Source of the DNA: a virus
Reading direction: 5' to 3' (one strand)
Virus genome (UHGV): UHGV-0117054
DNA length: 18,256 bases
A model generated the notes under the pieces. It searched no databases. It was not told the origin of the DNA and worked only from the letters and a program-made list of their open reading frames with translations. Made by a program: the position numbers and the translations under genes. Below are positions 3,752 to 18,256 of this stretch, one piece after another (positions within the stretch are counted from its first letter, which is position 1; every line of letters begins with the position of its first letter).

Positions 3752-6688
3752 ATGGCAAAAGAACAAAATGCTGGCAGCGTCGTCTATACGGTAAGCGCTG
3801 AGATCGAGCCCCTACTGATTGCTGGTAAGCAGGCCATTGATGTTCTGGATAAGCTGGATGCAGCCGCTCAACAATCTGGCAAGGGAATGGATAGCCTGGA
3901 CCAGAGTACATCCCATACTGGATCGGCGTTCAACGAACTGGCTGGATATGCCAATTCAATGGATAACCAACTGCGTAAACTGAACACCAATGTAAGCGGC
4001 ATAGCTCGCGCCATGGAAGAAGCTCGCAGCGGTACCGGGGGAGCAAACAGCGAATTCAATCGCGCTGAATCTATCATTGAGGCATTGGGTAACCAGTTGG
4101 CAATACTGGACGAGGCGCAGGAGAATGGTGCTCGCAGCGCTGCAGTGCTGGCAGCCCAGTTGCGCGCTGGCTCTAAAGCCACCGACGAAGAGAAGCAGAA
4201 GATCGGCGAGCTTACTGGTCGCTTATATGACATGAAGACTGGCGTTGAAAATGGCGCAAAAGGCACTGGCAGCTGGAAGTCCAGCATGCAGCAGGCTGGT
4301 TACCAGGTTCAGGACTTCATTATTCAGGTGCAGGGAGGTCAATCTGCGCTGGTGGCTTTCGCTCAGCAGGGCTCTCAGCTTGCTGGCGCATTCGGTCCGG
4401 GCGGTGCGATTGTCGGTTCTATCATTGCGCTGAGCTCGGTTATCGCTGGTGTGCTGATTACTTCGCTCAATGGCGGAAAGAACGCCATGGATGCTCTTAA
4501 GAGCGCTGCTGAAACCATGGATAAGGTTATTACCATTTCACAAAATGGTGTGGCCGCCCTCTCTGATAAATATGCCGCTCTGGCACAGACAAATATTGCT
4601 GTGGCAACCTTGATGAAAAAGCAGGCCGAGCTGGAATTGCAGGCTGCTCTATCAAACGTCTCAAAAGAAGTACAAAAGGCATCGAGTGACTTCATTAGCT
4701 TTGGTGATTCATTGATGTCTTCGCTGGGCGGTGGATATGCCAGCGTAAAATTATTTAATGACTATTTGTCCACGCTAAATATAACCACTAACGATTTCAG
4801 TGAGGCATGGAAGCAGGCAGCTGCCAGCGGGCAGGATGGTCAGTCAACGATGAACTCTATGGTGGCAACTGTTGCGGCCCTGTCTACCAAGTTCGATATT
4901 AGCGATCAGAAAGCTTTTGAGTTTGCTAAGCAACTTTCTGACATAGCGAAAACACCAACTGATGAAAAACTTAAGGCATTGGTTGTGACTCTGCAGGATG
5001 TCGGGAATGGGCAATCTTCTGGCGCGGCTAAGGCCCGGGAATATGCCAAAAGTCTCTTAACCATCATGGAGACAAGCACAGACGCTACTTCACGCCTTAA
5101 GGCTCTGAAAGAGATGACTGATAGCCTGACTTCCAGCCAGGATAAGGCGCTAAAAATCGCTCAGCAGGAGCTGTTTATTGCGCGGCAAACTGGTGAGGCT
5201 CAAATGAAAGCCAAGGCTTGGCGAGATGCCGAAACGCAGGGGCTGAAAGAGGGGACGGAAGCATTCAGGAAATACTACAACGTCAAGCTGGCAACCTATA
5301 AACAGGATGCGGCTAACGCTAACAGCAAGAAGGGAGCCAGTAGCGCTGCGTCAGAAGCTAAGAAGTTAGCCAATCAGCAAGAAACGGTGGCGCAAAAGCT
5401 TGAGAATTTGAGGCAGCAATCAGAGCTGACAGCCAAGTCGACGCAGCAACTCAGCCGCGAGCAGGCCATCCTCACTGCCCAGCAATCCTTGGGTGCAGCA
5501 GCAACTCAAAAAGACCTCGATCTTGCCGGACAGTATGCCGCTGCAAAATGGGATACGGCCAATGCGCTCAAAGCGCAGGCCGCCGCCGAGAAGCTCCTGC
5601 CGGAAGCGCGCGAAAACGCCAGCTATAAGCAGGATGTTGAGGATCTGAATACTGCCCTGACCGCGAAGAAAATCAGCCAGGAACAATACAACGAGACCGC
5701 AGAGCGCCTGGAGGCAACGCACCAGAACAACCTCGCCAAAATCCGTGCGCAGCAGGCAGTAACACCGCAGCAGGAGGCCGCTGGCGGCGTCGACCCGGTG
5801 CAGCAGCTGGCGAATGAGAACGCGCGTAAGCTGGCGCTCATTCAGCAGTACGAGCAGCAGGGCGTATTAACCCACCAGAATGCTTTGGCGCTGCGAGCTG
5901 CTGCTGATACAGAGTACGAGCAGGCGCGCATCGCTGCACAGTGGGAGATTTACCGTAATCAGAGCACTGGCAATGAACTGCTGGCCACCTCGCTGGAAGG
6001 CCTGCAGAGCGGGGCAACCAATGCCCTCACTGGATTAATCAACGGCACCCAGAGCCTGCAGGAGGCAATGGCTAACGTTGGCTCGACCATCATCAACAGC
6101 GTGATCGGCAGCCTCGTAGAAATGGGCATGCAGTGGGTTAAAAATCAGGTGATGGGGCAGGCAGCGGCGGCAGCCTCTCTGGCATCTACCATGGCGCAGG
6201 CAACTGCTGCAGCATCAGCTTGGGCGCCGGCAGCAATGAGTGCGTCGATCGCCACGTACGGCAGCGCCGCTGCTGTTGGTCAATCGGCTTATGCAGCCTC
6301 TCTTCTGTCAGCCAAGGGGTTAGCTGTCGCCGGTGCCCGCGAACACGGCGGGCCGGTCTCGGCCAGCTCCATGTACCGTGTGGGCGAAGGTGGCAAACCT
6401 GAGATTTTCAAAGCCAGCAATGGCAGCCAGTACATGATCCCCGGCGATAACGGTCGCGTCATCAGTAACCGCGATATTGGCGGTAGTGGCGGGGGGGCGT
6501 TCAATTACAGCCCGGTCATTCAGGTTAACGGGGATCCGACTGAGCAGCAGTTGGCCATGCTCGAGGCCGCGGTCAAGCGCGGCGCGCAGCAGGGCTATGC
6601 CATGGCCGTCAGCGACGTCGCCAGCGGCAAAGGAAAACTCTCCAACGCTCTGACCAACAACTTCAACACCAGTCAACGCCTCACATAA
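3752..6688 (+). CDS. Tail tape measure protein
   Basis: 978 aa, Ala/Gln/Glu-rich with long predicted coiled-coil stretches. It has an internal hydrophobic Gly-rich segment (…AFAQQGSQLAGAFGPGGAIVGSIIALSSVIAGVLITSL…). The C-terminal region (…YRVGEGGKPEIF…) resembles the lambda gpH C-terminus as I recall it. Confidence 0.9.
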   Translation: MAKEQNAGSVVYTVSAEIEPLLIAGKQAIDVLDKLDAAAQQSGKGMDSLDQSTSHTGSAFNELAGYANSMDNQLRKLNTNVSGIARAMEEARSGTGGANSEFNRAESIIEALGNQLAILDEAQENGARSAAVLAAQLRAGSKATDEEKQKIGELTGRLYDMKTGVENGAKGTGSWKSSMQQAGYQVQDFIIQVQGGQSALVAFAQQGSQLAGAFGPGGAIVGSIIALSSVIAGVLITSLNGGKNAMDALKSAAETMDKVITISQNGVAALSDKYAALAQTNIAVATLMKKQAELELQAALSNVSKEVQKASSDFISFGDSLMSSLGGGYASVKLFNDYLSTLNITTNDFSEAWKQAAASGQDGQSTMNSMVATVAALSTKFDISDQKAFEFAKQLSDIAKTPTDEKLKALVVTLQDVGNGQSSGAAKAREYAKSLLTIMETSTDATSRLKALKEMTDSLTSSQDKALKIAQQELFIARQTGEAQMKAKAWRDAETQGLKEGTEAFRKYYNVKLATYKQDAANANSKKGASSAASEAKKLANQQETVAQKLENLRQQSELTAKSTQQLSREQAILTAQQSLGAAATQKDLDLAGQYAAAKWDTANALKAQAAAEKLLPEARENASYKQDVEDLNTALTAKKISQEQYNETAERLEATHQNNLAKIRAQQAVTPQQEAAGGVDPVQQLANENARKLALIQQYEQQGVLTHQNALALRAAADTEYEQARIAAQWEIYRNQSTGNELLATSLEGLQSGATNALTGLINGTQSLQEAMANVGSTIINSVIGSLVEMGMQWVKNQVMGQAAAAASLASTMAQATAAASAWAPAAMSASIATYGSAAAVGQSAYAASLLSAKGLAVAGAREHGGPVSASSMYRVGEGGKPEIFKASNGSQYMIPGDNGRVISNRDIGGSGGGAFNYSPVIQVNGDPTEQQLAMLEAAVKRGAQQGYAMAVSDVASGKGKLSNALTNNFNTSQRLT

Positions 6689-6697
6689 GGAGTTCCC

Positions 6698-7168
6698 ATG
6701 GGGATCAGCAGCACCATTGATTTCCCGCACCAGTACCTGCCAATGCCTCAGCGTTCCGGGCATGGATTCACTCCGGTAAGCCCTCTCCAGCGTTCCACTA
6801 TGACATCCGGCCGCACGCGGCAGCGCCGCAAATACACCTCGGTTCCAACTGAGGCGGGTGTTTCATGGGTATTTAATGATGCCCAAGCGCAGCTGTTTGA
6901 GGTGTGGTTCAGAGACGTGATAACGGACGGCGCAGCGTGGTTCAACATGCGCATGCGCACGCCAATGGGCGTCGGTGACTACGTCTGCCGGTTCAAGGAT
7001 ATCTACGACGGGCCGGTGCTGTTCGGGTTAGGGTTCTGGAAATTCACGGCAACACTGGAGCTTTGGGAGCGTCCAATCCTGCCAGCTGGCTGGGGTAATT
7101 TCCCTGAGTTCATCGTGGGGCAGAGCATTATCGATTACGCGCTCAACAAGGAGTGGCCTGAAGCATGA
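6698..7168 (+). CDS. Minor tail protein (distal tail / gpM-like position)
   Basis: 156-aa ORF directly after the tape measure gene, with SD aaggag 6 nt upstream of ATG. Its stop overlaps the next gene's start. Assigned by synteny. Confidence 0.55.
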   Translation: MGISSTIDFPHQYLPMPQRSGHGFTPVSPLQRSTMTSGRTRQRRKYTSVPTEAGVSWVFNDAQAQLFEVWFRDVITDGAAWFNMRMRTPMGVGDYVCRFKDIYDGPVLFGLGFWKFTATLELWERPILPAGWGNFPEFIVGQSIIDYALNKEWPEA

Positions 7169-7653
7169 CCAGTCCAACCCTGAACAGGCTTTACGCCAGT
7201 GGCGGCAGCGAGGCGCTACTGAATACGCTGCAGATTACCGTCGGTGGGCAGGATTACTGGCTGGTCGAGAACTTCGAAGATATCACCGCTGTTACAGAGG
7301 CGGGGGCGACAGTGACATTCCAGGCGGCTGCCATGGCCGTCGCGCTGCCAGCCAGGAACAAAGACGGCACGCAGGATCTGCAGTTCGCCATCAGCAACAT
7401 TGACGGCATCGTTTCTACTGCGATACGCAACGCCCTGGCTAACCTGAACAACGGTACTCTGGTAATGCGGCAGTACATATCGACCGACCTTGGCTACCCG
7501 GCGGCACCACCTATCGTTCTGCAGATTAAGGACGGGTACTGGAAGGCGACCGAGGTGCAAATTACTGCCGGATTCCTGAATATCCTGAAAACCGCATGGC
7601 CGCGCTATCGTTACACGCTTCCTGTCTTCCCGGGGCTGCGTTATTTAACTTGA
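7165..7653 (+). CDS. Minor tail protein (gpL-like position)
   Basis: 162-aa ORF, ATG overlapping the upstream stop (translational coupling). Backbone GC. Assigned by synteny. Confidence 0.55.
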   Translation: MTSPTLNRLYASGGSEALLNTLQITVGGQDYWLVENFEDITAVTEAGATVTFQAAAMAVALPARNKDGTQDLQFAISNIDGIVSTAIRNALANLNNGTLVMRQYISTDLGYPAAPPIVLQIKDGYWKATEVQITAGFLNILKTAWPRYRYTLPVFPGLRYLT

Positions 7654-7708: not shown

Positions 7709-8263
7709 ATGCTCGGCTCTCTCAGGGAAATTGTCTTCTCCGTTGCAAAGCATGAAGTTGGACACTGGCTCGCATGGCATTGCTATGGCGGATCTTCGTC
7801 TGGCATCGAAGTAAAAATTCTATCGATTAATGGGCGACACACAGGTGCTTTTATCCCTGATATGGAGTGGGAAGTATCTACTCTGGATGAAGCCTGTAAA
7901 TATGTAAAAGCCAGGCTGCTGTGCCTACACGCTGGTATTTATGCGGAATCTTTCCTCGGTGATATTTATGACGCAGAGCGCATAAGCCGTGAGTTTAACC
8001 ACCTCGGCGCAGCAGCATCTGACTTTCACCGTAGTATTGAGCTTGCCTGGGCTTACTGCAACCTGACAGGCCGCTCAGATCAATACAGCGCGGTTTGTAG
8101 CGAAATAGACCAGGAGGCAGCCAGTCTGGTGGCGGATAATTTTGAATTTATTAAGCACGCAGCGAAGGCGATATCAGACATGGCGGCTTACGAAGGTCAG
8201 CTTATTAAGCTTCCTGACTATGAACTGCAATCCATGTATGAAAAATTTAAACGTCAGAGGTGA
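7709..8263 (+). CDS. Standalone FtsH-like (M41 family) zinc metallopeptidase domain protein, no AAA+ or membrane module
   Basis: HEVGH (HExxH) at residues 15-19. Downstream blocks line up with the E. coli FtsH protease domain as I recall it: EVKILSINGRHTGAF vs KVTIIPRGRALGVTF; LHAGIYAESFLG vs LYGGRLAEEIIYG; LGAAASDF vs STGASNDI; IDQEAASLVADNFEFIKHAAKAISDMAAYEGQL vs [34 protein letters not shown]. Strong SD (gaaggagga), lower GC than flanking tail genes. Confidence 0.65.
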   Translation: MLGSLREIVFSVAKHEVGHWLAWHCYGGSSSGIEVKILSINGRHTGAFIPDMEWEVSTLDEACKYVKARLLCLHAGIYAESFLGDIYDAERISREFNHLGAAASDFHRSIELAWAYCNLTGRSDQYSAVCSEIDQEAASLVADNFEFIKHAAKAISDMAAYEGQLIKLPDYELQSMYEKFKRQR

Positions 8264-8266
8264 TGA

Positions 8267-8437
8267 ATGGAAAAATTAACGCTTTCGGTAAAAGTTGATA
8301 CCACATCATTAGATGAGGCTATCGAGAAGGTCAGGACCTTAAAAAAAGAATTAAGGGAGCTTGGCCTGCCTTACTTCACCGGCAATCCTCTGGCTGGATA
8401 CCAGCCACAACAAGAAGAAAAAGCCACCAACCAATAA
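8267..8437 (+). CDS. Small hypothetical protein (56 aa) co-located with the M41 peptidase gene
   Basis: ATG 4 nt after the peptidase stop, SD-like gagg upstream. Translation MEKLTLSVKVDTTSLDEAIEKVRTLKKELRELGLPYFTGNPLAGYQPQQEEKATNQ. It ends at the terminator hairpin. Not in the supplied ORF track because it is under 60 aa. Confidence 0.3.
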   Translation: MEKLTLSVKVDTTSLDEAIEKVRTLKKELRELGLPYFTGNPLAGYQPQQEEKATNQ

Positions 8438-8460
8438 GCCGCTTGAAGCGGCTTTTTTTA
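8436..8460 (+). terminator. Intrinsic terminator closing the peptidase moron
   Basis: aagccgc-ttgaa-gcggctt hairpin followed by a run of seven T. It sits between the small ORF stop and the NlpC/P60 gene start. Confidence 0.5.
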
Positions 8461-8470
8461 TGAGGCGCCC

Positions 8471-8851
8471 ATGTTCAATCCCGATAAATACCGTTCTGTC
8501 GAGTGGCAGAAGGGCGGACGCGCTTACCCCGCGCTGGACTGCTTTGGCATCGTCAATGAAATCAGGCGTGACCTTGGCCTGGCTCCGTGGCCTGATTTTG
8601 CCGGGGTTACGAAGGATGATAACGGCCTCGACCGGGAGGCGCGCGGACTGATGGCTGGCCTGACGCGATGTGAGCCTGCCCCGGGCGCGGGTATCGCCTG
8701 TTATTCAGGCTCTGTGGTGACGCACGTTGCCATCGTTGTTGAGATTGATGGCCAGCTTCGCGCCGCGGAGTGCAATCCCCGCACTAACGTAACCTTCCTG
8801 CCGCTGGCGCGGTTTGCGCGCCGCTTTGTTCGCGTGGAGTATTACCAGTGA
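8471..8851 (+). CDS. NlpC/P60-family tail-associated peptidase (lambda gpK C-terminal-domain-like)
   Basis: 126 aa. ALDCFGIV supplies a candidate catalytic Cys and VTHVAIVV a candidate His, spaced as in NlpC/P60 papain-like folds. It sits immediately upstream of the J-like gene with a GTGA stop/start overlap. Confidence 0.65.
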   Translation: MFNPDKYRSVEWQKGGRAYPALDCFGIVNEIRRDLGLAPWPDFAGVTKDDNGLDREARGLMAGLTRCEPAPGAGIACYSGSVVTHVAIVVEIDGQLRAAECNPRTNVTFLPLARFARRFVRVEYYQ

Positions 8852-11800
8852 CGATCCGAATCTATCCCTCACGCCTGCCCGGCGAGCCGCTGGAAAAGCA
8901 CGAACACGAAACGATGACCCTCAGCGCCTGGTTTGCGCGGAACGTGAAGGACTGGGCACCGGATCAGCAGCATCCGGTTGCGGTTGAAATCGACTGTGTC
9001 CCCGTCCCGGCGTCAGAGTGGCCACTGTGCGTTATCAAACGCGAAACCGACGTCAGGATGTATCCGGTGCCGTACGGTACCGGCGCAGAAATCGCGATCT
9101 GGGTTGCCGTCAGCGTAGCCGTTGCCTCTGCTGCGTACAGCATCTACATGATGAGCACAATGTCTCAGGCTGGCGGCGGCGGTGCCCAGGCGGCCAGCGG
9201 CGACCAGATTGACCTCAACCCGGCAAAAGCGAACGCGGCGAAGCTGGGAGACCCCATCCGTGAAATCTTTGGAAAATATCGCGTCTGGCCTGATTACGTC
9301 GTGCAGCCGGTAAGCCGGTTCGTGAACGAGACCAGCATGGAAACCAGCATGTTCCTGTGCGTGGGTGTCGGCGACATGGTGATTAACCAGTCAGATATCC
9401 GGATCGGTAATACGCCGATCTCCGCGTTTGGTACCGACGTGCGTTACACCCTCTACCCGCCTGGCGCCACGGTATCCGGCGATACGCGCACTGAAAACTG
9501 GTTCAATTCACCAGAGGTCGGGAATACCGGTTCCGGTACTGCCGGGCTGGACCTTGGCTCAAGCGGACCGGAGACGGTCAGCATTATCGCTGATGCGCTG
9601 GTCGTGTCAGGGAACTCCATCACGCTGGTTGACGTATCGTCGTCTGGCGATGAGGAGATCCCGCCGTCGTGGACCGTCGGAACGGTGATCACCGTACTGG
9701 CCCCAAATTCGTATACGGTCGTGTCGTCCGGCGGTTACAGCATGATTTATGGCGGGATAGAGGAACTTGCACCTTATGTAGGCATGCCGGTGACGCTGAA
9801 CTATAACGGCAATGACTACGATCTGGTGATTGCCAGCTATGCCCCGGGCGTTCCGGCAGTGCCGGGGGTGGGTGGGAGTGCCGCAACCATAACTGCCAGC
9901 GCCGCGCCGACCACCTACGACTTTAGCACCGCGCCTGTGACGTTCAGCATCAGCTGGCAGGGCACGACTTACCCGGTATCACTGGTCACCAACTACGTCA
10001 CCATGTCAGGCCTGGTTTCCTCGATCACCTCCCAGCTCGCAGGCTCTGGCCTGGTAGCGCGCGATAACAGTGGGCGGCTTGAAATCGGCGAGGCCAGTAG
10101 CCCATATGCTGGCGGGTCCATCACCAACAGCCCGTTACCCGTTGCTGTTTTCGGTGATGCTCCGGTTAATACGGCAGGCGTGAAATCAACGGGCGGCACG
10201 ACGGAGGTCAGGGCGCACATTACCCTGGCTTACAACAGCGCCACCGGTACGCCATTCACAGGGCTGCCAGAGGGAATTCAGCGCTTTTCTCTGGGGCTTG
10301 CCGGCAATCAGTTCCGGATCACCGATGTGGACAGCCAGACCATCACCGTAGAGCGGTTGACTGTCACCACAGGTCCTGGCGGCGAGACGATCACGACGCC
10401 GGATCCATCGTGGCCTGGCTTCACCGAGCGTACGCTGCTGGATGCGACCGTGACGGGTGTCAGTGACGATTACGAATGGGTTGGCCCGTTCCTGGCCTGC
10501 CCGGACGGCGAAACGCTGGACGCATTCGAGGTGAACATCAACTTCCAGAGCGGCCTGGTGCGTTATACCGATAAAGGTAACAAGCGCTCAATGCCCGTTC
10601 GCCTGGTGATCCAGTATCGCAAAGTTGGAACCACCGCCTGGCAGCAGCAGTCCCCGTTCTATTCCCGCAGTACTGAAAACCAGATCGGCTTTACACATCG
10701 CTACAGCGTGTCGCCTGGTCAGTATGAGATCCGGATGCGCAGAACCGAACCGGTTAAGGGCGGCAGCACGCGTGACCAGGTTTTCTGGCAGGCGCTGCGC
10801 TCCCGGCTGAGCAAGCGACCCACTAAGTACGACGGTGTCACTACCATGGCGCTGACCGTGCGCACTGGTAACCGCCTGGCAGCCATGTCCGATCGCCGTA
10901 TAAGCGTCACGCCAACCCGGCTTTACAGCGGCGGCAGAACTGCACGGAGCATCAGCGGCGCGCTTTACCATGTACTCGAGTCGCTTGGGTTCACGACCAG
11001 CCAGATTGACACAGCGGCGATTGATGCTCTGGAGCAAACATACTGGACGCCCCGCGGTGAGAAATTCGACTGGGCGAGCGGCGAGAGCAAGTCCGCACTC
11101 GAGGTGCTGCAGAAAATCACTAACGCAGGGATGGGGTATTTCCTGCTGTCTGATGGACTGGCGTCTGCCGGCAGGGAAGGCATTAAACCCTGGGTAGGCA
11201 TGATTACCCCGCAGGAAACCACCGAGGAGCTGCAGACTGCCTTTAAAGCCCCATCGCAGGACGATTACGACGGTGTGGACGTGACCTATATCAACGGCAC
11301 CACCTGGGCAGAAGAAACCGTGCAGTGTCGCCTGTCTGGCAACCCAACGCCGTTGAAAATCGAGAGCTACACGCTGGATGGTGTTCTGAATGAAGACCGC
11401 GCCTACCGCATCGGCATGCGCCGGTTGCTGGGCTACCAGTTGCAGCGCCTGCAGCACACCACCTCGACCGAGATGGATGCGCTCTGTTATGAGTTCATGG
11501 ATCGTATTGTGCTGGCAGATGATATCCCCGGCAGCGAGACGCTGAGTTGCCTGATTACCGATATGACGTATGACAGCAGCAAAATCACCATGACGCTTAG
11601 TGAGGCCCCGGACTGGTCGTTCCAAAGCCCGCGCGTGATTATCCGCCATCAGGATGGCAGGGCATCAGCCATGCTGGTACCGACACGCATTGACGACTTC
11701 ACCATCTCGGTGCCGTACAGCGCCGTGTTGGAGCCGGAATTGTGGGCTATGAACGACGCGTACATTGAACCACCGCGCCTGCTGTTCTGCTCATCTGTTC

Positions 11801-11931
11801 GGGTGCCGTATGACGCTCTGGTCGGCGAAATATCACCGGGTAACGATGGGATAAGCCAGGTTACGGCTATTCAGTATCACCCAGGAAAGTACGCCTACGA
11901 CGACGCCACATACCCCGGCGACGCCGCTTAA
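8848..11931 (+). CDS. Host specificity / central tail fiber protein (lambda gpJ-like) with an N-terminal gpI-like region
   Basis: 1027 aa with GTG start. The central region (…SPGQYEIRMRRTEPVKGGSTRDQVFWQALRSRL…) resembles the NIRMRRMTP block of lambda J as I recall it. The first ~170 aa have a small domain, then a hydrophobic helix (AEIAIWVAVSVAVASAAYSIYMM) and a Gly-rich linker, like lambda gpI. Confidence 0.85.
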   Translation: MTIRIYPSRLPGEPLEKHEHETMTLSAWFARNVKDWAPDQQHPVAVEIDCVPVPASEWPLCVIKRETDVRMYPVPYGTGAEIAIWVAVSVAVASAAYSIYMMSTMSQAGGGGAQAASGDQIDLNPAKANAAKLGDPIREIFGKYRVWPDYVVQPVSRFVNETSMETSMFLCVGVGDMVINQSDIRIGNTPISAFGTDVRYTLYPPGATVSGDTRTENWFNSPEVGNTGSGTAGLDLGSSGPETVSIIADALVVSGNSITLVDVSSSGDEEIPPSWTVGTVITVLAPNSYTVVSSGGYSMIYGGIEELAPYVGMPVTLNYNGNDYDLVIASYAPGVPAVPGVGGSAATITASAAPTTYDFSTAPVTFSISWQGTTYPVSLVTNYVTMSGLVSSITSQLAGSGLVARDNSGRLEIGEASSPYAGGSITNSPLPVAVFGDAPVNTAGVKSTGGTTEVRAHITLAYNSATGTPFTGLPEGIQRFSLGLAGNQFRITDVDSQTITVERLTVTTGPGGETITTPDPSWPGFTERTLLDATVTGVSDDYEWVGPFLACPDGETLDAFEVNINFQSGLVRYTDKGNKRSMPVRLVIQYRKVGTTAWQQQSPFYSRSTENQIGFTHRYSVSPGQYEIRMRRTEPVKGGSTRDQVFWQALRSRLSKRPTKYDGVTTMALTVRTGNRLAAMSDRRISVTPTRLYSGGRTARSISGALYHVLESLGFTTSQIDTAAIDALEQTYWTPRGEKFDWASGESKSALEVLQKITNAGMGYFLLSDGLASAGREGIKPWVGMITPQETTEELQTAFKAPSQDDYDGVDVTYINGTTWAEETVQCRLSGNPTPLKIESYTLDGVLNEDRAYRIGMRRLLGYQLQRLQHTTSTEMDALCYEFMDRIVLADDIPGSETLSCLITDMTYDSSKITMTLSEAPDWSFQSPRVIIRHQDGRASAMLVPTRIDDFTISVPYSAVLEPELWAMNDAYIEPPRLLFCSSVRVPYDALVGEISPGNDGISQVTAIQYHPGKYAYDDATYPGDAA

Positions 11932-11950: not shown

Positions 11951-11973
11951 ACCCGCTTCGGCGGGTTTTTTTA
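11951..11973 (+). terminator. Intrinsic terminator between J-like gene and tailspike gene
   Basis: acccgc-ttcg-gcgggt hairpin followed by tttttttat. The tailspike SD (ggag) follows directly. Confidence 0.55.
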
Positions 11974-11987
11974 TGCCCGGAGCTAGC

Positions 11988-14432
11988 ATGACCACATATG
12001 CCACGAATAACCCGATAGGGTCCATGGATCCGAAGGACCTTTTCGATAACGCCCAGAATCTGGACTTTGCGGTAAACGATATTACCAAAGCCATCTGGAA
12101 GGACCGTTTTGGGAGGGACAGAAAAACATACTGGGGCATGGAGCAGGCCTTTTCAGCTCAACTTCTAAGCCAGAAGCAGATTGGAGAAGCGCAACTTCAG
12201 AACCAAAAGGAAGAGCTGGATGCGCAGTTACTGTCGCAAGAGCAGCGGTTCAGTTATTTCATTATGAACTCTGGCTACAAATTTGTTGGAGAATACACAG
12301 ATGGGCCTCTAACCGTTACTGACTATAACCAGTTGATTCGCTATCAGAATGAGCTTTATAAGTTAAAGGCCGACACAGCGGTTCCATTTACGACAACCGG
12401 CAAGAATGCCACCTCATGGGTCAATGATTTCGCTCATTTTATCAACGTTGCCGATGCGGCATTAAGGCAGCAAATTGGGGATCCTTACGGGGCTGAAAAA
12501 TACCCAGAACTTCAATTGGCACGTTGGCGTGATGAGGGGGACGTTCGTGGCTGGGGAGCCATTGGTGATGGGTTGAATGATGACACTGATGCCATTTTAT
12601 TATGCTTTGCTGATGCTAAATTACGAGGAGGCCGGACAAAAATCAAGTTCCAGCATGGAACCTACCTTGTTCGAGGAACAAGCCTAATAATCGACTTTCC
12701 AAACGTCTTATTAGAGGGAAATTGGGCAAAACTTAGATTGGTCGACAGTCCGACAGTAATTCAGGGGCCAGTTCTAAAGGTTGCGCAATATGGCAACACG
12801 TCTGTTCGAGGCACGGTAGAAAATGTAACCATCAAAAACCTTGAAATTGATGGCAACAAGCTGAACCAGGTCCAAACCATGAACACGGGAGGGGATGCGA
12901 ACAATCCAGGCTTTGTATCAGAAGACGTGGTGAATCTGCATGTAGAAAATGTTATCTCCCGTAACTGTGACGGATACGGATTTCTCTTCGCTGGCTCTAA
13001 TCTTCCACACCGTAAAGGCGCTTACTTCAAAAACTGCTGGGCACACGGCAACAACGTCGACGGTTTTGACATCAAGGCTGGTTTCAATCATGTCACCCTA
13101 GATAGCTGTCGTTCATGGGATAATGGCTATGCGCCGATGGTTGAACTTCGCTCCGGCATGGGTATCGACATTCGCGGCAAGAACGTCACTCTCCTGAACT
13201 GTGTGGCAGGTGACGAAGGTAGTAATTACGCAGGTAACTTCCGTATCCGTGAAAATGCTCAGGCTGGCATCTCGCTGTTTGGTTGCCACAGCCACAATAG
13301 CCCGGATGGTACTTATGGTTTTATGTGCATTGGTGGTGGTAATACAAATATTTCCTTAGTTAGCTGCACATCCACCAACGATGGCACGTCACTGAAGCAT
13401 GAGCGTGGACATGTCACAGCAGTGGGATTCCGGTCATGGAAACCTCGGCTATTAAGTGTGCTGCAATACCCTTCTCAATTTGTGTTGAGCACACTGACGG
13501 CAGCAGCCACGTTTACTGCCTTTGGTGTATCAGTAACCATTCTCCCGAGCGATTATCTTAGTGCAACCGTGGGGTCTGAAATCAAGATCCCTACTAACAC
13601 CGGTACGATTTACCTACTGGTGAACGAGGCAGTTTCATCGACGCTGGTGTGCACGGTGCTGCGCGGAAATCTGGGGACGGCTGCGGTGGGCGCAAGCATC
13701 ACCACGGTATCGACAGGCAGCCTGACCATAGATGGCGGTATTTCTTATCAGTCTGCCAGCGACGCCATGCAGTTTGCCTCTACGTTACAGACTCTGACGG
13801 ACAGCTCGATGCCAGTAACCATAAATGGCTTTATCATAGAGGCACCAATCCGCTACGGGGTGAACTTCCAGGGTGGTGATGTGAGTTTCTTTGGCGGCGC
13901 AATTCGTAACTGTGGCAAAGGGTCATCCTCCCCTGGATTTTTCGTCGGCAATGCGGCTACTGCTGAATCAACATTCCGGTTGGACAGCGTATTCATGGGG
14001 AATGATGACAAATCATTCACGCAGTCAGCCGGCCTTCAGTTCCAGTCAACAAGCCTGGCGAAAGGGAGCGTTAGAGCGTGTAAATTCGCCGATAATGCCA
14101 ACTCGCCAGTCATTGGCTCGCCATCTTCTGGTGTGCGGTTTGCAGACAATATCGGCTACACCAACGAGGGTACATTCTCTACAACAATTGATGTGACAAC
14201 TGTTGGGGTGAAAACATTCTCAATTCCGCATGGGCTAAGCAAAGCACCTTCTGGTAAAGATGTGCAACTGACCATCCAGCGGTCTGGGGCGGCGAATGAC
14301 TACGTTCTCTCCACTCCGATGATTACCGGAGCAAGCTCTACAATTATTTCTGGAAGGGTGTCCGTACTCACGGCTAGCGCAACCACAGGTGAAGCCGCAA
14401 CAGTAAACGCATTCATCAGCGCCAACCCATAG
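11988..14432 (+). CDS. Tailspike / receptor-binding protein with pectate-lyase-like parallel beta-helix (putative polysaccharide depolymerase); start ATG 11988 preferred over 11973
   Basis: GDVRGWGAIGDGLNDDTDAI matches the GAxGDGxTDDTxAI signature that opens the beta-helix in phage depolymerases. Asn/Gly-rich beta-helix rungs follow (NCDGYGFLFAGSN, NCWAHGNNVDGFDIKAGFN, GKNVTLLNCVAGDEGSNYAGNF, CTSTNDGT). ggag lies 6 nt upstream of ATG 11988. GC is intermediate. Confidence 0.8.
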   Translation: MTTYATNNPIGSMDPKDLFDNAQNLDFAVNDITKAIWKDRFGRDRKTYWGMEQAFSAQLLSQKQIGEAQLQNQKEELDAQLLSQEQRFSYFIMNSGYKFVGEYTDGPLTVTDYNQLIRYQNELYKLKADTAVPFTTTGKNATSWVNDFAHFINVADAALRQQIGDPYGAEKYPELQLARWRDEGDVRGWGAIGDGLNDDTDAILLCFADAKLRGGRTKIKFQHGTYLVRGTSLIIDFPNVLLEGNWAKLRLVDSPTVIQGPVLKVAQYGNTSVRGTVENVTIKNLEIDGNKLNQVQTMNTGGDANNPGFVSEDVVNLHVENVISRNCDGYGFLFAGSNLPHRKGAYFKNCWAHGNNVDGFDIKAGFNHVTLDSCRSWDNGYAPMVELRSGMGIDIRGKNVTLLNCVAGDEGSNYAGNFRIRENAQAGISLFGCHSHNSPDGTYGFMCIGGGNTNISLVSCTSTNDGTSLKHERGHVTAVGFRSWKPRLLSVLQYPSQFVLSTLTAAATFTAFGVSVTILPSDYLSATVGSEIKIPTNTGTIYLLVNEAVSSTLVCTVLRGNLGTAAVGASITTVSTGSLTIDGGISYQSASDAMQFASTLQTLTDSSMPVTINGFIIEAPIRYGVNFQGGDVSFFGGAIRNCGKGSSSPGFFVGNAATAESTFRLDSVFMGNDDKSFTQSAGLQFQSTSLAKGSVRACKFADNANSPVIGSPSSGVRFADNIGYTNEGTFSTTIDVTTVGVKTFSIPHGLSKAPSGKDVQLTIQRSGAANDYVLSTPMITGASSTIISGRVSVLTASATTGEAATVNAFISANP

Positions 14433-14897: not shown

Positions 14898-16727
14898 ATG
14901 ATAAACTTTATTGTTTTAAATGGAAAAAGCGAGTCTGTTAAGAAATTATACGAGACAGCGCAGCAGGCCCTAAAAAGGAACTTAACATTTAAGCCAGTAG
15001 AGGTGGCTAATAAAATATCTGGTAGCGGAGCTTGGGCATATACAGCATGTGGCAATGCGGAAGGCGAAATATCAAAAAGAATAACATCTAAGCAAAGCGG
15101 CGTATGCCTGATAAATGGCCCTGTTTTAAGGATGTGTGATAGCTATGATGTCTCAGATGCCGCACTTGATGCCTCCACCAAAAACGATGCGGAATACATG
15201 TTTGACAATATTTCCGGGTCTTACAACTTCGTTTCAATAACCTCTAAGAATGGCCTCCTTGCTTTCGGCGATTTCTCAGGCACCTGTCCTATTTATTACA
15301 CAATAATTGATGGCGTAACTTGCGTAAGTAACCGGGCATCTGCATTGCATGAACTGCGCGGGAATAGTAAATATAATATTTCTTCTTTGAGCTGGTTAAT
15401 TGGGCATGCCAATATATTTGGCAATGAGTCACCTTTTGAATGCGTGTATTCAATTACAGCTGGTAGCTATTTAAAGTCACCACTTGGTTCAACAACAGTA
15501 AACATCAATAAATTTAAGAATCAGATATGGCCTTCAAATGACGATGCTCAGTATCTGAACGACCTCTCAGGTGATGATTGGGATTTGATAGTAGATGAGT
15601 TGGTGAAAAACTTTAAGGCTGCAAGTGAAAACATTCCCGGCGAACTCCGTTTATCACTCACCGGTGGTAAGGACTCTCGCCTTGTCCTTGCGCTGGCATT
15701 GGGTGCAGGATTCAAAGACAGGATCACCACATTTACGAACGGCCCGGAAGGCAGCCCAGAGATAAGCTGTGCACAGAACATCGCCAACAAAATCGGCGTT
15801 AAGCACGTCGCTAACGTTAAGGCTCCACAAGTTAAAGCTCAGGATTTTGCTAATTCATGGGAAAAACTTAACTGGCATTCCTACAGAATGGAAAGTTATA
15901 TTTGCCCATGGGATGGAGCAACAGCTGAACGCACCATCAAAAATATAACGTCCGATATGACTGGCTTTGGCGGCGAGCTATATCGCGGACCCGGCGGACA
16001 CGCCAAGCAGTTTAAAAACCTGTCCTTTATGGACAATAAAGATGCAATTCTTTCTAAGTTCATAAACTACCATCAGAAGATGGATCCATTAAACATTCTC
16101 TCCAGTTTGTATAAAAACGCTCAAATAGGTTGGTTCTACGGCTGGCTTGAGGAGAATATTAAATCTGTAAGGTTTGATGTTTTACCTGAGAAGTTCTTCG
16201 TAGAAAACCGTCTTTCCAATTGGAACGGCCCTCTTGCTCAGAACGTCACAGGCAGAATTAAACTGATGCCACTTCTCTCTCCTAAAGTTGCGCGTTTGGT
16301 ATTCAAGCTCAGCCCGGAGGCCAGGAACAAAGAATTGTTCCACTACAGCGTCATGGCAAAGCTGGCTCCTGAATTAGTTTCTCTGCCATTTTTGAATGCG
16401 ACATGGGATAAATCATTGCAGGGTAGATTTGGCCTTGATATCGCAGATGCTCCTTATGATAGCGGGGTTAAATTCACGCCAAGGTCTGTGCAAGCATGGC
16501 AGGCTCAATTTGTCGAAGGTCAGCGAGAAGAAATCGTGCACTTGCTTGAAAGAGCCGCCGAATATACAAACATCAGAGAGATATTTGACGTCGATAAATT
16601 ATGCGAGTACGTCCGGGAAAAGGAAGGGATGAACACCATAGAAATCAAAACTATCCTCTCCTCAATTGCTGTTGCCATTACCTTGCTGAATGATCAGGAA
16701 AGCGTAGAGGACCTTGGCCAGGTGTAA
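14898..16727 (+). CDS. Asparagine synthetase (AsnB) family amidoligase-like protein; N-terminal domain lacks the Cys nucleophile
   Basis: 609 aa. PP-loop SLTGGKDS at residues ~254-260 (AsnB has SGGLDS near 234-239). TGFGGELYRG matches the AsnB GEGxDExFGGY block and GRIKLMPLLSP the E-x-R-x-PFLD block. FGDFSGTCPIYY matches the RDxxGxKPLYY motif of the N-terminal domain. It starts MINF…, not MC…. GC is about 38-40%. Confidence 0.75.
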   Translation: MINFIVLNGKSESVKKLYETAQQALKRNLTFKPVEVANKISGSGAWAYTACGNAEGEISKRITSKQSGVCLINGPVLRMCDSYDVSDAALDASTKNDAEYMFDNISGSYNFVSITSKNGLLAFGDFSGTCPIYYTIIDGVTCVSNRASALHELRGNSKYNISSLSWLIGHANIFGNESPFECVYSITAGSYLKSPLGSTTVNINKFKNQIWPSNDDAQYLNDLSGDDWDLIVDELVKNFKAASENIPGELRLSLTGGKDSRLVLALALGAGFKDRITTFTNGPEGSPEISCAQNIANKIGVKHVANVKAPQVKAQDFANSWEKLNWHSYRMESYICPWDGATAERTIKNITSDMTGFGGELYRGPGGHAKQFKNLSFMDNKDAILSKFINYHQKMDPLNILSSLYKNAQIGWFYGWLEENIKSVRFDVLPEKFFVENRLSNWNGPLAQNVTGRIKLMPLLSPKVARLVFKLSPEARNKELFHYSVMAKLAPELVSLPFLNATWDKSLQGRFGLDIADAPYDSGVKFTPRSVQAWQAQFVEGQREEIVHLLERAAEYTNIREIFDVDKLCEYVREKEGMNTIEIKTILSSIAVAITLLNDQESVEDLGQV

Positions 16728-17058: not shown

Positions 17059-17453
17059 TGGGCTTCCCTTCGCCGGCTGGCGACTATGTAGAGCAGCGGT
17101 TAACTCCGGAGCGAATCTGCGGTGTTGGCGTCGACACTCGCATCCTGGAAACCTCATCCGGCTTTGCCGTTATCGAGCCGTGCACCAGGCTGGTACAGAA
17201 TCAGGTTCTGCTGATTTTATCTGGCGGCAGAACGCAGTTTGCCCGGGTAATGGGTAGGGCATTAATCACTGATGATGGTGAAGCGATCGAAGGGGAGGAG
17301 GCGGAGGAAGTTGAGGTGCTGGGGCGCGTGACGTTCTTCATCAACAGCGCGCTACAGGATGACAGGGTGGGTGATGGGTGGCATTACGCCACCTTTTCAT
17401 CAAGCCAGTCCGCCCACCACTGCATCATTTCTCTGCGCTTATCGAGATACTGA
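17058..17453 (+). CDS. UmuD'-like (peptidase S24-fold) protein, natively leaderless and likely catalytically degenerate
   Basis: N-terminus MGFPSPAGDYVEQR matches the UmuD segment right after the Cys24-Gly25 cleavage site (CGFPSPAADYVEQR), so the ORF begins where processed UmuD' begins. An in-frame stop lies 18 nt upstream. The SGDSM serine motif and the catalytic KK region are not recognisable. GGAGG sits 7 nt before the ATG. The last ~23 codons overlap the integrase 3' end. Confidence 0.6.
   Translation: MGFPSPAGDYVEQRLTPERICGVGVDTRILETSSGFAVIEPCTRLVQNQVLLILSGGRTQFARVMGRALITDDGEAIEGEEAEEVEVLGRVTFFINSALQDDRVGDGWHYATFSSSQSAHHCIISLRLSRY
17377..17398 (+). terminator. Hairpin plus T-tract at the convergent junction with the integrase (possible + strand terminator)
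   Basis: ggtggc-attac-gccacc stem-loop followed by tttt. It lies inside the C-terminal extension of the UmuD'-like ORF and over the integrase stop codon. Confidence 0.35.
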
Positions 17454-18256
17454 GCATGGTTGTAAATCCCGCGCACAGATCCGCCGTTGGCATGTGCCAG
17501 TTGCACTTCAATAGCATCAGCAGGCCATTCGTGCTCGTTCATAATCGTGCTGAATTCATGCCTGAATCCGTGACCGCTTTCCAGACCCTCATAGCCGATT
17601 TGTTTGATCACAAGCAATACCGCGTTCTCGCAGATTGGCTTCTTCTTATCGTTGCGCCCGGCAAAAACAAACTCTGATACTGGTTTAGTGATTGAGCTTA
17701 GCGTAGTGAGAAGTTCAACCACCTGGTCTGACATCGGGACCACATGAATTTTGCGTCCCTTCATCACACTGGCGTCGATGGTGATAATCCTGTTTTCAAA
17801 ATCGACGTTCTTCCATAGCATGGAACGAAGCTCTTTCGTTCTTAGGGCTGTGTAGCGTAAAACTTTGGTCGCAATGAGCGATACGATACTTCCTGAAAAT
17901 GTTGCCAGTGCTTTGTTGAATGCCGGGATCTGGTCTGCAGGAAGAAACGGGAAGTTCTTCTTGCGGTATCCCTTCATGGCGTCAGCAAGGTCAGGTGCCG
18001 GGTTATATTTAGCCCTTCCGGTGACAATAGCGTAACGGAAAACCTCGCCGCATCTTCTGCGTGCTTTGTTGGCTCGCTCCATTGCACCGCGATCTTCAAA
18101 TCTGCGGATTACTTCCAGCAGTTGCATCGGCTCAATATCCTGAATCTCAAGGCCGCCGATGATGGGTAAAATGTCGTCATCAAACATTTTTGCAAGTTCA
18201 GTTGCATAGCCTACTGACCAGACTTGCTTCTTGTGCTCGTACCATTCCTTGTAAAT
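17384..18256 (-). CDS. int: Tyrosine recombinase / phage integrase (P4-type), N-terminus beyond the window edge
   Basis: The reverse frame stays open to the window end (…IYKEWYEHKKQVWSVGYATELAKMFDDD…). The C-terminal catalytic region has HGFRHEFST (HxxR) and VRGIYNHAQYLD (catalytic Tyr), ending …QWWADWLDEKVA. Confidence 0.9.
   Translation of the reverse strand: MYKEWYEHKKQVWSVGYATELAKMFDDDILPIIGGLEIQDIEPMQLLEVIRRFEDRGAMERANKARRRCGEVFRYAIVTGRAKYNPAPDLADAMKGYRKKNFPFLPADQIPAFNKALATFSGSIVSLIATKVLRYTALRTKELRSMLWKNVDFENRIITIDASVMKGRKIHVVPMSDQVVELLTTLSSITKPVSEFVFAGRNDKKKPICENAVLLVIKQIGYEGLESGHGFRHEFSTIMNEHEWPADAIEVQLAHANGGSVRGIYNHAQYLDKRREMMQWWADWLDEKVA

Follow-up and report, generated by a model that had tools for sequence, protein, structure and literature searches.

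A gpI-like module fused to a J-like tail-tip hub protein beside a JAB-less NlpC/P60 gene in virus genome UHGV-0117054

Tail-tip genes of the window

The window, the whole 18,256-nucleotide stretch of virus genome UHGV-0117054 that was analyzed, carries on its plus strand four tail-tip genes that follow the tape measure gene (TMP) in the order probable distal tail protein, DUF1833 protein, NlpC/P60-only K-like protein, and I-J protein. This order is the conserved "DUF1833-type" tail-tip cassette. The gene directly after the tape measure gene (6698–7168, 156 amino acids) encodes the probable distal tail protein in a minimal form, an assignment drawn from gene order and weak matches. Its product matches PHROG 384, "virion structural protein" (E = 3e-54), and the N-terminus of gp17 of Shigella phage Sf11, a distal tail protein (PDB ID 9occ), by BLASTP with E = 3e-5, phmmer giving E = 0.11 for chain 9occ_C. 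The next gene (7165–7653) encodes a 162-residue DUF1833 protein (Pfam DUF1833, E = 2.3e-34; PHROG 396 "minor tail protein", E = 2.8e-50) that corresponds to "baseplate hub 1" and so to hub domain I, which in lambda is the N-terminal part of gpL. Sf11 gp16, the solved baseplate hub 1, also matches DUF1833, weakly (E = 8e-4), and has the same position in its cassette. An 819-residue β-helix tailspike is encoded by a separate gene 3′ of the I-J gene, and a 184-residue inserted gene gave no match in PADLOC and PDB sequence searches. In public records, genes of this tail-tip cassette are labeled "kinase," "nitrite transporter," and "ArsR family regulator"; annotators should note that the labels are wrong.

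The K-like gene (8471–8851, plus strand) is preceded by a GAGG Shine-Dalgarno sequence 5 nucleotides 5′ of the ORF and encodes 126 amino acids with a papain-like domain of the NlpC/P60/CHAP type. The protein matches PHROG 329, "minor tail protein" (E = 1e-10), and weakly matches Pfam CHAP (E = 3.7e-4), the score of 21.4 bits not reaching the cut-off of 26. It aligns with lambda gpK in the NlpC/P60 region, and Cys-24, His-85, and Glu-100 occupy invariant columns in an alignment of six orthologues that includes gpK. Three of these six K-type proteins, lambda gpK among them, match NLPC_P60, and the 23-bit cut-off of that model is exceeded by the orthologues from R29Z (24.6), Eho59 (27.3), and Vibrio 1.013.O (44.6). 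The conserved order of the catalytic Cys, His, and third polar residue makes the K-like protein a putative papain-like peptidase. For comparison, lambda gpK matches NLPC_P60 together with a partial Prok-JAB (E = 6e-5). Pfam found no Prok-JAB match in the K-like protein, which at 126 residues is too short to hold both a JAB/MPN and an NlpC/P60 domain, and no JAB domain in any other window ORF tested. The proposal of the earlier note that this gene has only the NlpC/P60 part of gpK is thus upheld.

The I-J gene (8848–11931, plus strand) starts with a GTG codon that overlaps the stop codon of the K-like gene (GTGA) and encodes a protein of 1027 amino acids. PHROG 469 covers the protein over its full length (E = 2e-240), which together with the TipJ and Foldseek matches places it in the tail-tip hub, "baseplate hub 2," or TipJ family. 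The canonical J core lies at residues 554–1016 (10507–11895) and consists of an FNIII-A domain (555–652) followed by the TipJ/Phage-tail_3 region. This core matches NCBIfam TipJ NF040662 with E = 1.2e-120 over residues 554–1016 (403 bits; cut-off 140) and Pfam FNIII-A_GpJ with E = 1.8e-14 (54.4 bits; cut-off 27), and BLASTP aligns it with residues 109–193 of lambda J (E = 4e-5). Pfam Phage-tail_3 (PF13550 and PF24801 being the J-type Pfam models) is matched by 43 of 47 homologues. The matches to J-type models of Pfam and NCBIfam are limited to residues 554–1016, and residues 1–200 gave no match to any model in these databases. In a Foldseek search with an AF2 model of the whole protein, the best match was the Sf11 hub (9occ_E, 5.7e-36), followed by lambda gpJ chains (~1e-22), T1 (4e-17), and T5 (4e-7). 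A counterpart of the lambda-type J N-terminus, the start of hub domain II, is placed at residues ~153–217 (9304–9498): when residues 150–260 of the family were compared with ten lambda-type J N-termini by hhalign, residues 153–217 of the window protein were aligned with lambda J 7–86 (34%, P = 4e-4). This is weak to moderate support for a canonical J N-terminus that would begin at about residue 155.

The gpI-like N-terminal module

Residues 1–77 (8848–9078) form a ThiS/MoaD-like (ubiquitin-like) β-grasp that ends in the motif PVPYG. The AF2 model of this domain has pLDDT values of 82–92 over residues 1–75 and the topology β-β-α-β-β-α-β, and its best PDB fold matches are all ThiS, MoaD, or ubiquitin. 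Among 47 diverse homologues, six match Pfam ThiS (best E = 1.8e-6) and two match Pfam Lambda_tail_I (PF06805, E = 0.034). An hhalign comparison of the β-grasp with that of gpI gave 84% probability (P = 7e-6), with P values of 0.06–0.6 in reversed and crossed controls. A conserved Gly at the C-terminal end of the β-grasp is a described feature of TAPI proteins (PMC1779556); its counterpart here, Gly-77, is retained by at least 90% of the close relatives but is not invariant, being present in 54 of 78 diverse homologues; Pro-75 is present in 63 of the 78. The β-grasp is followed at residues 80–117 (9085–9198) by a hydrophobic helix, AEIAIWVAVSVAVASAAYSIYMMSTM, and a Gly-rich stretch (GGGG). Residues 80–106 are hydrophobic, the AF2 model places the helix at residues 81–106, and its position matches that of H1/H2, the hydrophobic helices in lambda gpI (PMC11101478). 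Residues 80–117 gave no profile signal of their own in hhalign.

The third segment, residues 118–158 (9199–9321), carries a gpI-C-like motif, G118..N129..GDPIREIFG142..PDY..F158, and within the module conservation is highest here, with Asn-129 and Gly-142 present in 78 of 78 and Pro-148 in 76 of 78 diverse homologues. It is a candidate counterpart of the conserved C-terminal domain of gpI (TAPI-C), whose strands augment gpJ sheets: the pattern N..(A/G)..G..(I/V)P..(Y/F)G can be read in both, and the segment is colinear with lambda gpI 157–204 in the full-length hhalign alignment, while on its own it gives a weak signal (12%, P = 0.0025). AF2 modeling of the full-length protein as a monomer gave pLDDT values of about 80 for strands at residues 139–141 and 155–159 and low confidence for residues 75–123.

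For the full module hhalign gave 91% (P = 1e-6) in a colinear alignment of window residues 1–153 with lambda gpI 15–205, and the reversed and crossed controls showed no signal (P of 0.06–0.6). This convincing result was obtained with a profile of 78 diverse N-terminal sequences against a profile of 17 gpI sequences from ten phage loci; earlier runs with shallow alignments had given probabilities of 16% and then 64%. BLASTP of residues 1–200 found no similarity to lambda gpI, and Pfam PF06805 has no match in the window protein. With only two of 47 homologues matching PF06805, the module is therefore a distant relative of this Pfam family and not a member defined by the model. A fold search of BFVD returned J-like proteins with the same N-terminus and no stand-alone gpI. 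Homology of residues 1 to ~158 with the whole of gpI, comprising β-grasp, hydrophobic segment, and a probable C-terminal motif, is supported by these results. The gpI-type module that the earlier note had suspected ahead of the J-like core is confirmed by fold, by the Pfam matches of homologues, and by hhalign, although it ends near residue 158 (position 9321), before the position 9400 given there. HMM and structure annotation of residues 1–200 thus found gpI similarity, and a J N-domain devoid of it was not borne out.

Distribution of the fused layout and possible roles of the two proteins

The K-like gene has orthologues in 78 of 79 informative related contigs, each followed by an uninterrupted I-J ORF whose start codon, which varies among GTG, ATG, and TTG only, overlaps the K-like stop. 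A search with the module found 418 clusters at 50% identity, and among the matches listed the module sits at residue 1 of J-like proteins of ~850–1480 amino acids. The best 150 of the 418 clusters are all fused proteins or fragments, and a stand-alone gpI might sit among the weaker matches. Because the ORF is kept in 78 of 79 contigs and the module is N-terminal in 418 clusters, the fusion is not a product of chance or assembly. The family comprises at least 721 clusters at 90% identity, and the fused layout is found in phages D3/phi297, 9NA, and Sf11 and in Vibrio phages. The description of this tail-tip architecture as unusual therefore does not hold: it is the usual layout in a very large family, already known from a domain arrangement (the TAPI-TAPJ fusion) published in 2006 and from the structure of a homologue released in 2025. 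Among 11 diverse phages with a fused protein, eight have a gene of 126–151 codons for an NlpC/P60-only protein directly upstream, whereas in all six phages with a stand-alone I gene and an annotated K, the K protein has 244–280 amino acids. In this small sample, the association of fused I with JAB-less K and of stand-alone I with long K is near-perfect.

The 1027-residue ORF very probably belongs, with nothing out of the ordinary, to a large and already described family of tail-tip hubs of siphophages in which the whole gpI equivalent and J form one polypeptide. Homology with the solved lambda and Sf11 tail tips suggests that the I-J protein closes the tail tip in three copies, with the helix and strands of the module in the tip lumen. 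On opening of the tip, these parts would leave the lumen and may enter the outer membrane. The β-grasp would be either flexibly tethered or removed, and a role in assembly is most likely for the K-like protein, which would not be a virion component.

It is conceivable, although we consider it unlikely, that the K-like protein cleaves the I-J polyprotein in tail assembly, either after Gly-77, which would remove the ubiquitin-like domain (Ubl), or between I and J. Such cleavage would be consistent with the overlap of the K-like stop with the I-J start in 78 of 79 relatives, with the conserved Cys/His/Glu triad, and with the frequency of Gly-77 and Pro-75 among the diverse homologues, yet Gly-77 is far from invariant, and the proteins at the K position of 9NA and Isfahan have no aligned catalytic Cys. 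The β-grasp is unmodeled in Sf11 gp14, which is present in three copies per virion as one chain modeled over residues 81–827 (PMC12724387; PDB ID 9occ, chain E). In lambda, only the portion of gpI after the β-grasp is resolved (PMC11101478; PMC10721106), the first modeled residue differing between studies (101 or 134/135). However, the β-grasp of Sf11 is unmodeled in a phage that has the fused protein but carries no NlpC/P60 gene in the interval from gp16 to gp14, and the continuous chain excludes a separation of I from J there. No gp14 peptide coverage was found in the Sf11 supplement text. Iyer, Burroughs, and Aravind (2006, Genome Biol 7:R60; PMC1779556) proposed that the peptidase domains of K process TAPI, but they assigned the removal of the Ubl to JAB, exactly the part that is absent here. 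The lack of gpK in lambda virions, in which neither mass spectrometry nor cryo-EM detected it (PMC10721106), would also agree with cleavage during assembly. A more specific form of this idea, which we regard as improbable, is that the small papain-like K of the JAB-less lineage serves as a Ubl-specific protease that clips the β-grasp after Gly, the cut licensing closure of the tip. If true, Ubl processing would here be performed by a phage-encoded protein of the NlpC/P60 fold.

NlpC/P60 (PF00877) and CHAP (PF05257) domains are typically peptidoglycan hydrolases. The K-like protein might accordingly be a peptidoglycan endopeptidase for infection or lysis that is unrelated to the I module, its adjacency inherited from a lambda-type K-I-J arrangement, but this also appears quite unlikely. 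The orthologues in Pseudomonas phages DDSR119 and Marin are annotated "peptidoglycan hydrolase," annotations that are homology-based, and lambda entry involves peptidoglycan cleavage by an enzyme that has yet to be named (PMC11101478). Against this role, the virion results for gpK cited above are joined by the finding that the virion proteins of Sf11 include none of K type (PMC12724387), and the 126-residue K-like protein has no evident signal peptide or targeting domain.

That the apparent fusion is an artefact of two genes merged by a sequencing error or of a start placed too far upstream, or a plain J N-domain unrelated to gpI, is hardly credible: the lack of Pfam, NCBIfam, and lambda gpI BLASTP matches in residues 1–200 would fit it, but homology with gpI is supported by profiles and folds, with negative controls, the ORF is uninterrupted in 120 full-length clusters and in all complete relatives except four shorter copies, the start codon is limited to the three alternatives given above, and the Sf11 chain runs continuously from residue 81 into the J core. 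Several database proteins of 145–250 amino acids hold the module alone and were considered as stand-alone I-like genes; they were rejected as contig-end fragments, frameshifted copies or tails, and assembly chimeras or other assembly junk.

As an ordinary fused hub, the protein of the window adds one more copy to a widespread prophage tail-tip cassette and changes little. It does touch a real but general question, namely the role of the Ubl in gpI-type modules and the targets of K-type peptidases. For this question, phages with the fused protein and no JAB offer a simpler genetic system because their lineage has one peptidase domain and one substrate candidate, encoded by adjacent, translationally coupled genes.

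Comparison with known systems

Lambda has the same pieces in the same order, a papain-like K, an I module, and a J hub with FNIII-A and a TipJ core. In lambda, I is a separate gene of 223 codons whose product has two hydrophobic helices, whereas the module in the window has one helix and is not a stand-alone protein of ~190–225 amino acids between K and J, being fused in frame to J, as it is in all complete relatives. The lambda virion contains three copies of gpI, which plugs the tube and has hydrophobic helices (PMC11101478; PMC10721106). Lambda K carries a partial JAB, in contrast to the K-like protein, and lambda gpL has an extra Fe-S C-terminal domain (PMC10721106), compared with the 162 residues of the DUF1833 protein. 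The window protein contains ~350 extra residues (~200–550) ahead of FNIII-A relative to lambda J, which itself extends into the central fiber and the LamB-binding domain; in the window a separate tailspike gene is present instead.

T5 pb3 corresponds to gpL together with gpI and gpJ's N-terminal part according to the relevant passage of PMC10721106, so that the plug element that is a separate gpI in lambda lies within the hub polypeptide, as in the window, and the folds match (E = 4e-7). In T5, however, the plug is an internal insertion in hub domain II (HDII), hub domain I is fused as well, and that passage reports no ubiquitin-like domain.

The closest structure is Sf11 gp14 ("baseplate hub 2"), the best fold match, which is homologous over both the N-terminal module and the J core. 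A phmmer search of PDB sequences with the whole 1027-residue protein gave no match, and gp14 was reached by the family profile only (9occ_E, E = 3.4e-51; N-terminal module, E = 1e-15). The cassette order of Sf11 is the same as in the window, with a tailspike gene after it. The two proteins differ in length (828 amino acids in Sf11, 1027 here) and share ~14% identity in the structural alignment. Sf11 also differs by having no NlpC/P60 gene beside gp14 and by its distal tail protein, which has 457 amino acids and a tailspike adaptor compared with 156 amino acids here.

The published prophage tail operons with TAPI-TAPJ fusions and an NlpC partner without JAB (PMC1779556) have the same ubiquitin-like TAPI at the N-terminus of J and the same JAB-less NlpC/P60 K as neighbor. 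The β-strand-rich "Z" protein of these operons may be the DUF1833 protein or the 156-residue protein of the window. There is no difference of substance between these operons and the genes described here, and the window is one more instance of them.

The gpI-like module of the J-like protein

The 1027-aa J-like ORF (8848-11931) is an end-to-end fusion of a gpI-like and a J-like protein, a conclusion on which structure prediction, an exhaustive search, profile-profile comparison and the position of the J start converge. Curated J-type models (Pfam, NCBIfam) are limited to residues 554-1016, and PHROG 469 spans the full length of the ORF, indicating that the N-terminus is a family trait. Residues 1-200 gave no match to lambda gpI by BLASTP and none in Pfam and NCBIfam. 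The AlphaFold2 model of these residues shows a confident β-β-α-β-β-α-β domain at residues 1-75 (pLDDT 82-92) followed by an extended helix (residues 81-106), and its top matches among solved structures are ThiS, MoaD, and ubiquitin-like proteins. The exhaustive search with a module profile returned 418 clusters (50% identity), and in every full-length match listed (best 150 of 418) the module is positioned at residue 1 of a protein of 850-1480 aa. Pfam ThiS matches 6 of 47 diverse homologues with the module (best E = 1.8e-6) and Lambda_tail_I matches two of the 47, weakly. When a 78-sequence module profile was compared with one of 17 gpI sequences (from lambda, ten phage loci ranging from Mannheimia to Psychrobacter, and six prophage proteins), the probability was 91% (P = 1e-6), with residues 1-153 colinear with lambda gpI 15-205. 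Against the same gpI profile the beta-grasp alone gave 84% (P = 7e-6), the C-terminal motif alone a weak match (P = 0.0025), and the hydrophobic parts alone no signal; reversed and crossed controls gave P values of 0.06 to 0.6. Residues 153-217 give a weak to moderate alignment (34%, P = 4e-4) with the start of lambda-type J proteins. The ORF is accordingly comprised of a beta-grasp (residues 1-77), a hydrophobic helix with a Gly-rich stretch (80-117), a gpI-C-like motif (118-158) and the J portion from ~155 onward. Conservation within the module peaks at its C-terminal motif (N129 and G142 in 78/78, P148 in 76/78), and the Gly ending the beta-grasp is kept in 54/78 diverse homologues. The earlier note had proposed a gpI-type module at this N-terminus, and the predicted beta-grasp, its ThiS/MoaD fold matches and the colinear gpI match bear this out; it is residues 153-217, instead, that would correspond to the J-family N-domain.

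Residues ~200-550 (9450-10500) have no counterpart in lambda J, in which FNIII-A begins near residue 100, whereas here ~350 residues separate the J N-terminus from FNIII-A. They are predicted with good confidence to be beta-rich, include an acidic stretch (SSSGDEE), and probably represent a variable insertion, since the family varies in length, from 827 to 1483 aa among the matches listed.

The family profile matched one chain in the PDB, gp14 of Shigella phage Sf11 (9occ_E, E = 3.4e-51), with the N-terminal module inside the match (E = 1e-15). The same chain is the top fold match of the full-length AlphaFold2 model, ahead of lambda gpJ, T1, and T5. Sf11 gp14 is described as "baseplate hub 2", a protein of 828 residues modelled from 81 to 827 and present in three copies per virion (PMC12724387). 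Residue 81 is where the hydrophobic segment begins, ten positions past the Gly that ends the beta-grasp, so the beta-grasp is not modelled, as is also the case for lambda gpI, and the helix, conserved motif and J core form one continuous chain.

The I-J fusion is not an artefact. The long ORF runs uninterrupted in related viral contigs, where complete copies are ~1025-1031 aa with the exception of four shorter ones, and its start overlaps the stop of the K-like gene in 78 of 79 informative contigs (start codon GTG in 75, ATG in 2, TTG in 1); one more GTG copy starts clear of the K-like stop. Short database proteins that appeared to be stand-alone modules were rejected as contig-end fragments, frameshifted copies or chimeras.

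Gene context in the window

The window covers the tail half of a prophage from an enterobacterium, and a handful of E. coli chromosomes carry DNA ~90% identical to it. The gene order is tail terminator (599-982), tube protein with a Big_2 domain (1048-1791), a 978-aa ORF in the tape measure gene position (3752-6688; so named in the orthologue of an E. coli relative), a 156-aa protein (6698-7168), DUF1833 protein (7165-7653), K-like gene (8471-8851), J-like ORF, and an 819-aa beta-helix tailspike-like ORF (11973-14432). A low-GC cassette at 7709-8461 splits the operon between the DUF1833 and K-like genes. It encodes a 184-aa ORF (PHROG 36675, function unknown) in which HEVGH forms an HExxH-type motif, as well as a 56-aa ORF (8267-8437), and ends in a strong hairpin and T-run resembling a terminator (8436-8461). 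The cassette has no match in the E. coli relatives or in PADLOC and PDB sequence searches; 9 of 80 related viral contigs carry it at the same site. A 41-45% GC stretch between the tailspike gene and the integrase on the opposite strand (17384-18187) holds a 609-aa ORF (14898-16727) with weak Asn_synthase/QueC-like (PP-loop) matches under the Pfam cut-offs and no PADLOC match, which could be a lysogenic-conversion or cargo gene. The final 36 nt of the J-like gene (11896-11931) are 97% identical to the homologous gene end in Klebsiella and Escherichia phages, whose proteins are elsewhere ~50% identical to the J-like ORF, and may mark a conserved module boundary for tailspike gene exchange.

Public names of these genes vary. 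In E. coli relatives the J-like gene is annotated as "host specificity factor TipJ family phage tail protein" and the K-like gene as "CHAP domain-containing protein" or, wrongly, "nitrite transporter" (RefSeq entries H17-H25). Misleading names in ON470608.1, E. coli RefSeq and Klebsiella phages (H27/H29) include "kinase" for the J-like protein and "ArsR family transcriptional regulator" for the DUF1833 protein, and in a few Salmonella phages the first 75 residues have lent the entire hub protein the name "MoaD/ThiS family protein".

The K-like protein and its possible roles

A GAGG ribosome-binding site lies 5 nt before the ATG of the 126-aa K-like ORF. Its product matches PHROG 329 (1e-10) and, below threshold, Pfam CHAP; orthologues further removed from it do reach NLPC_P60. 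Cys24, His85, and Glu100 occupy columns that are invariant when the protein is aligned with lambda gpK and four orthologues, and these columns map to the NlpC/P60 part of gpK. No JAB/MPN signal was found with Pfam, whereas lambda gpK has NLPC_P60 at 63-176 and the C-terminal part of Prok-JAB at 10-56, and the proposal that the K-like gene holds only the NlpC/P60 part therefore stands. The lambda JAB domain itself looks N-terminally truncated relative to the 244-280-aa K proteins of other phages, as gpK covers the 114-position Prok-JAB model from 63 to 112 only; no upstream extension of lambda gene K (L002:4277-4876) is possible, since a stop codon precedes its start at 4277 with no other start in between.

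Among eleven phages and prophages with the fused protein, eight carry an NlpC/P60-only gene of 126-151 aa directly upstream of it (this window, vB_EcoS-733R5, DDSR119, Marin, phi297, Eho59, R29Z, and Vibrio 1.013.O). Salmonella phage 9NA (gp53, L097:2484-2843) and Proteus phage Isfahan (L098:2496-2867) have ~120-aa proteins at this position that align poorly (13-14% identity) and lack the aligned Cys, with DRW/DSW at that site and another Cys four positions further on; the conserved His (LHVG) is retained, as is the Asp preceding the catalytic position, and they may be inactive or divergent K-like proteins. Sf11 is the one with no protein at this position. Its cassette runs from TMP through the distal tail protein gp17, hub 1 (gp16, weakly DUF1833) and gp14 to the tailspike, and in the 10 kb of genome examined its hub 1-hub 2 interval (L016:4518-4890) contains a 58-aa reverse-strand ORF alone, with no NlpC/P60 gene next to gp14.

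An assembly role of the K-like protein, with an unspecified substrate or none, is no less probable than the processing of the I-J fusion proposed earlier. Such processing is a rather unlikely possibility: the coupling of the two genes, the intact catalytic triad and the unmodelled beta-grasp of Sf11 gp14 are in its favor, but Sf11 has no NlpC/P60 gene beside gp14, in the 9NA-type proteins the Cys is apparently absent, the Gly ending the beta-grasp is not invariant, and JAB, the domain to which Ubl removal was attributed in 2006 (PMC1779556), is exactly the one missing here. A virion-borne cell-wall hydrolase is unlikely because K is not present in lambda and Sf11 particles.

Comparison with known tail tips

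Domain content, homology and gene coupling of the I-J cassette are shown by the present analysis. By analogy with lambda and Sf11, three I-J copies and three DUF1833 subunits would close the tail beneath the hexameric distal-tail ring, with residues ~80-160 standing in for gpI, where they would line or plug the lumen and touch the tape measure C-terminus. Opening of the tip would release these residues, with the hydrophobic helix perhaps inserting into the outer membrane. By cryo-EM, lambda gpI is a three-copy virion protein visible solely after its beta-grasp, as two hydrophobic helices, a plug and strands extending the gpJ sheets (PMC11101478, PMC10721106), and gpK is absent from the virion (PMC10721106).

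Calling this architecture unusual, as the earlier note did, is not justified. The family is abundant (418 clusters at 50% identity), the structure of one homologue is already available, and the layout is known: Iyer, Burroughs and Aravind, who recognized the ubiquitin-like domain in lambda tail assembly protein I, described the TAPI-TAPJ fusion with a JAB-less NlpC partner twenty years ago, in 2006 (PMC1779556). Our small sample agrees with their statement, the annotated K of six phages with a stand-alone I gene being 244-280 aa, against 126-151 aa for the NlpC/P60-only gene in eight of the eleven with the fusion. A 2026 paper treats it as general knowledge that one to three polypeptides may make up a hub subunit, and in T5 the single hub protein pb3 corresponds to gpL, gpI and gpJ's N-terminal part taken together (PMC10721106).
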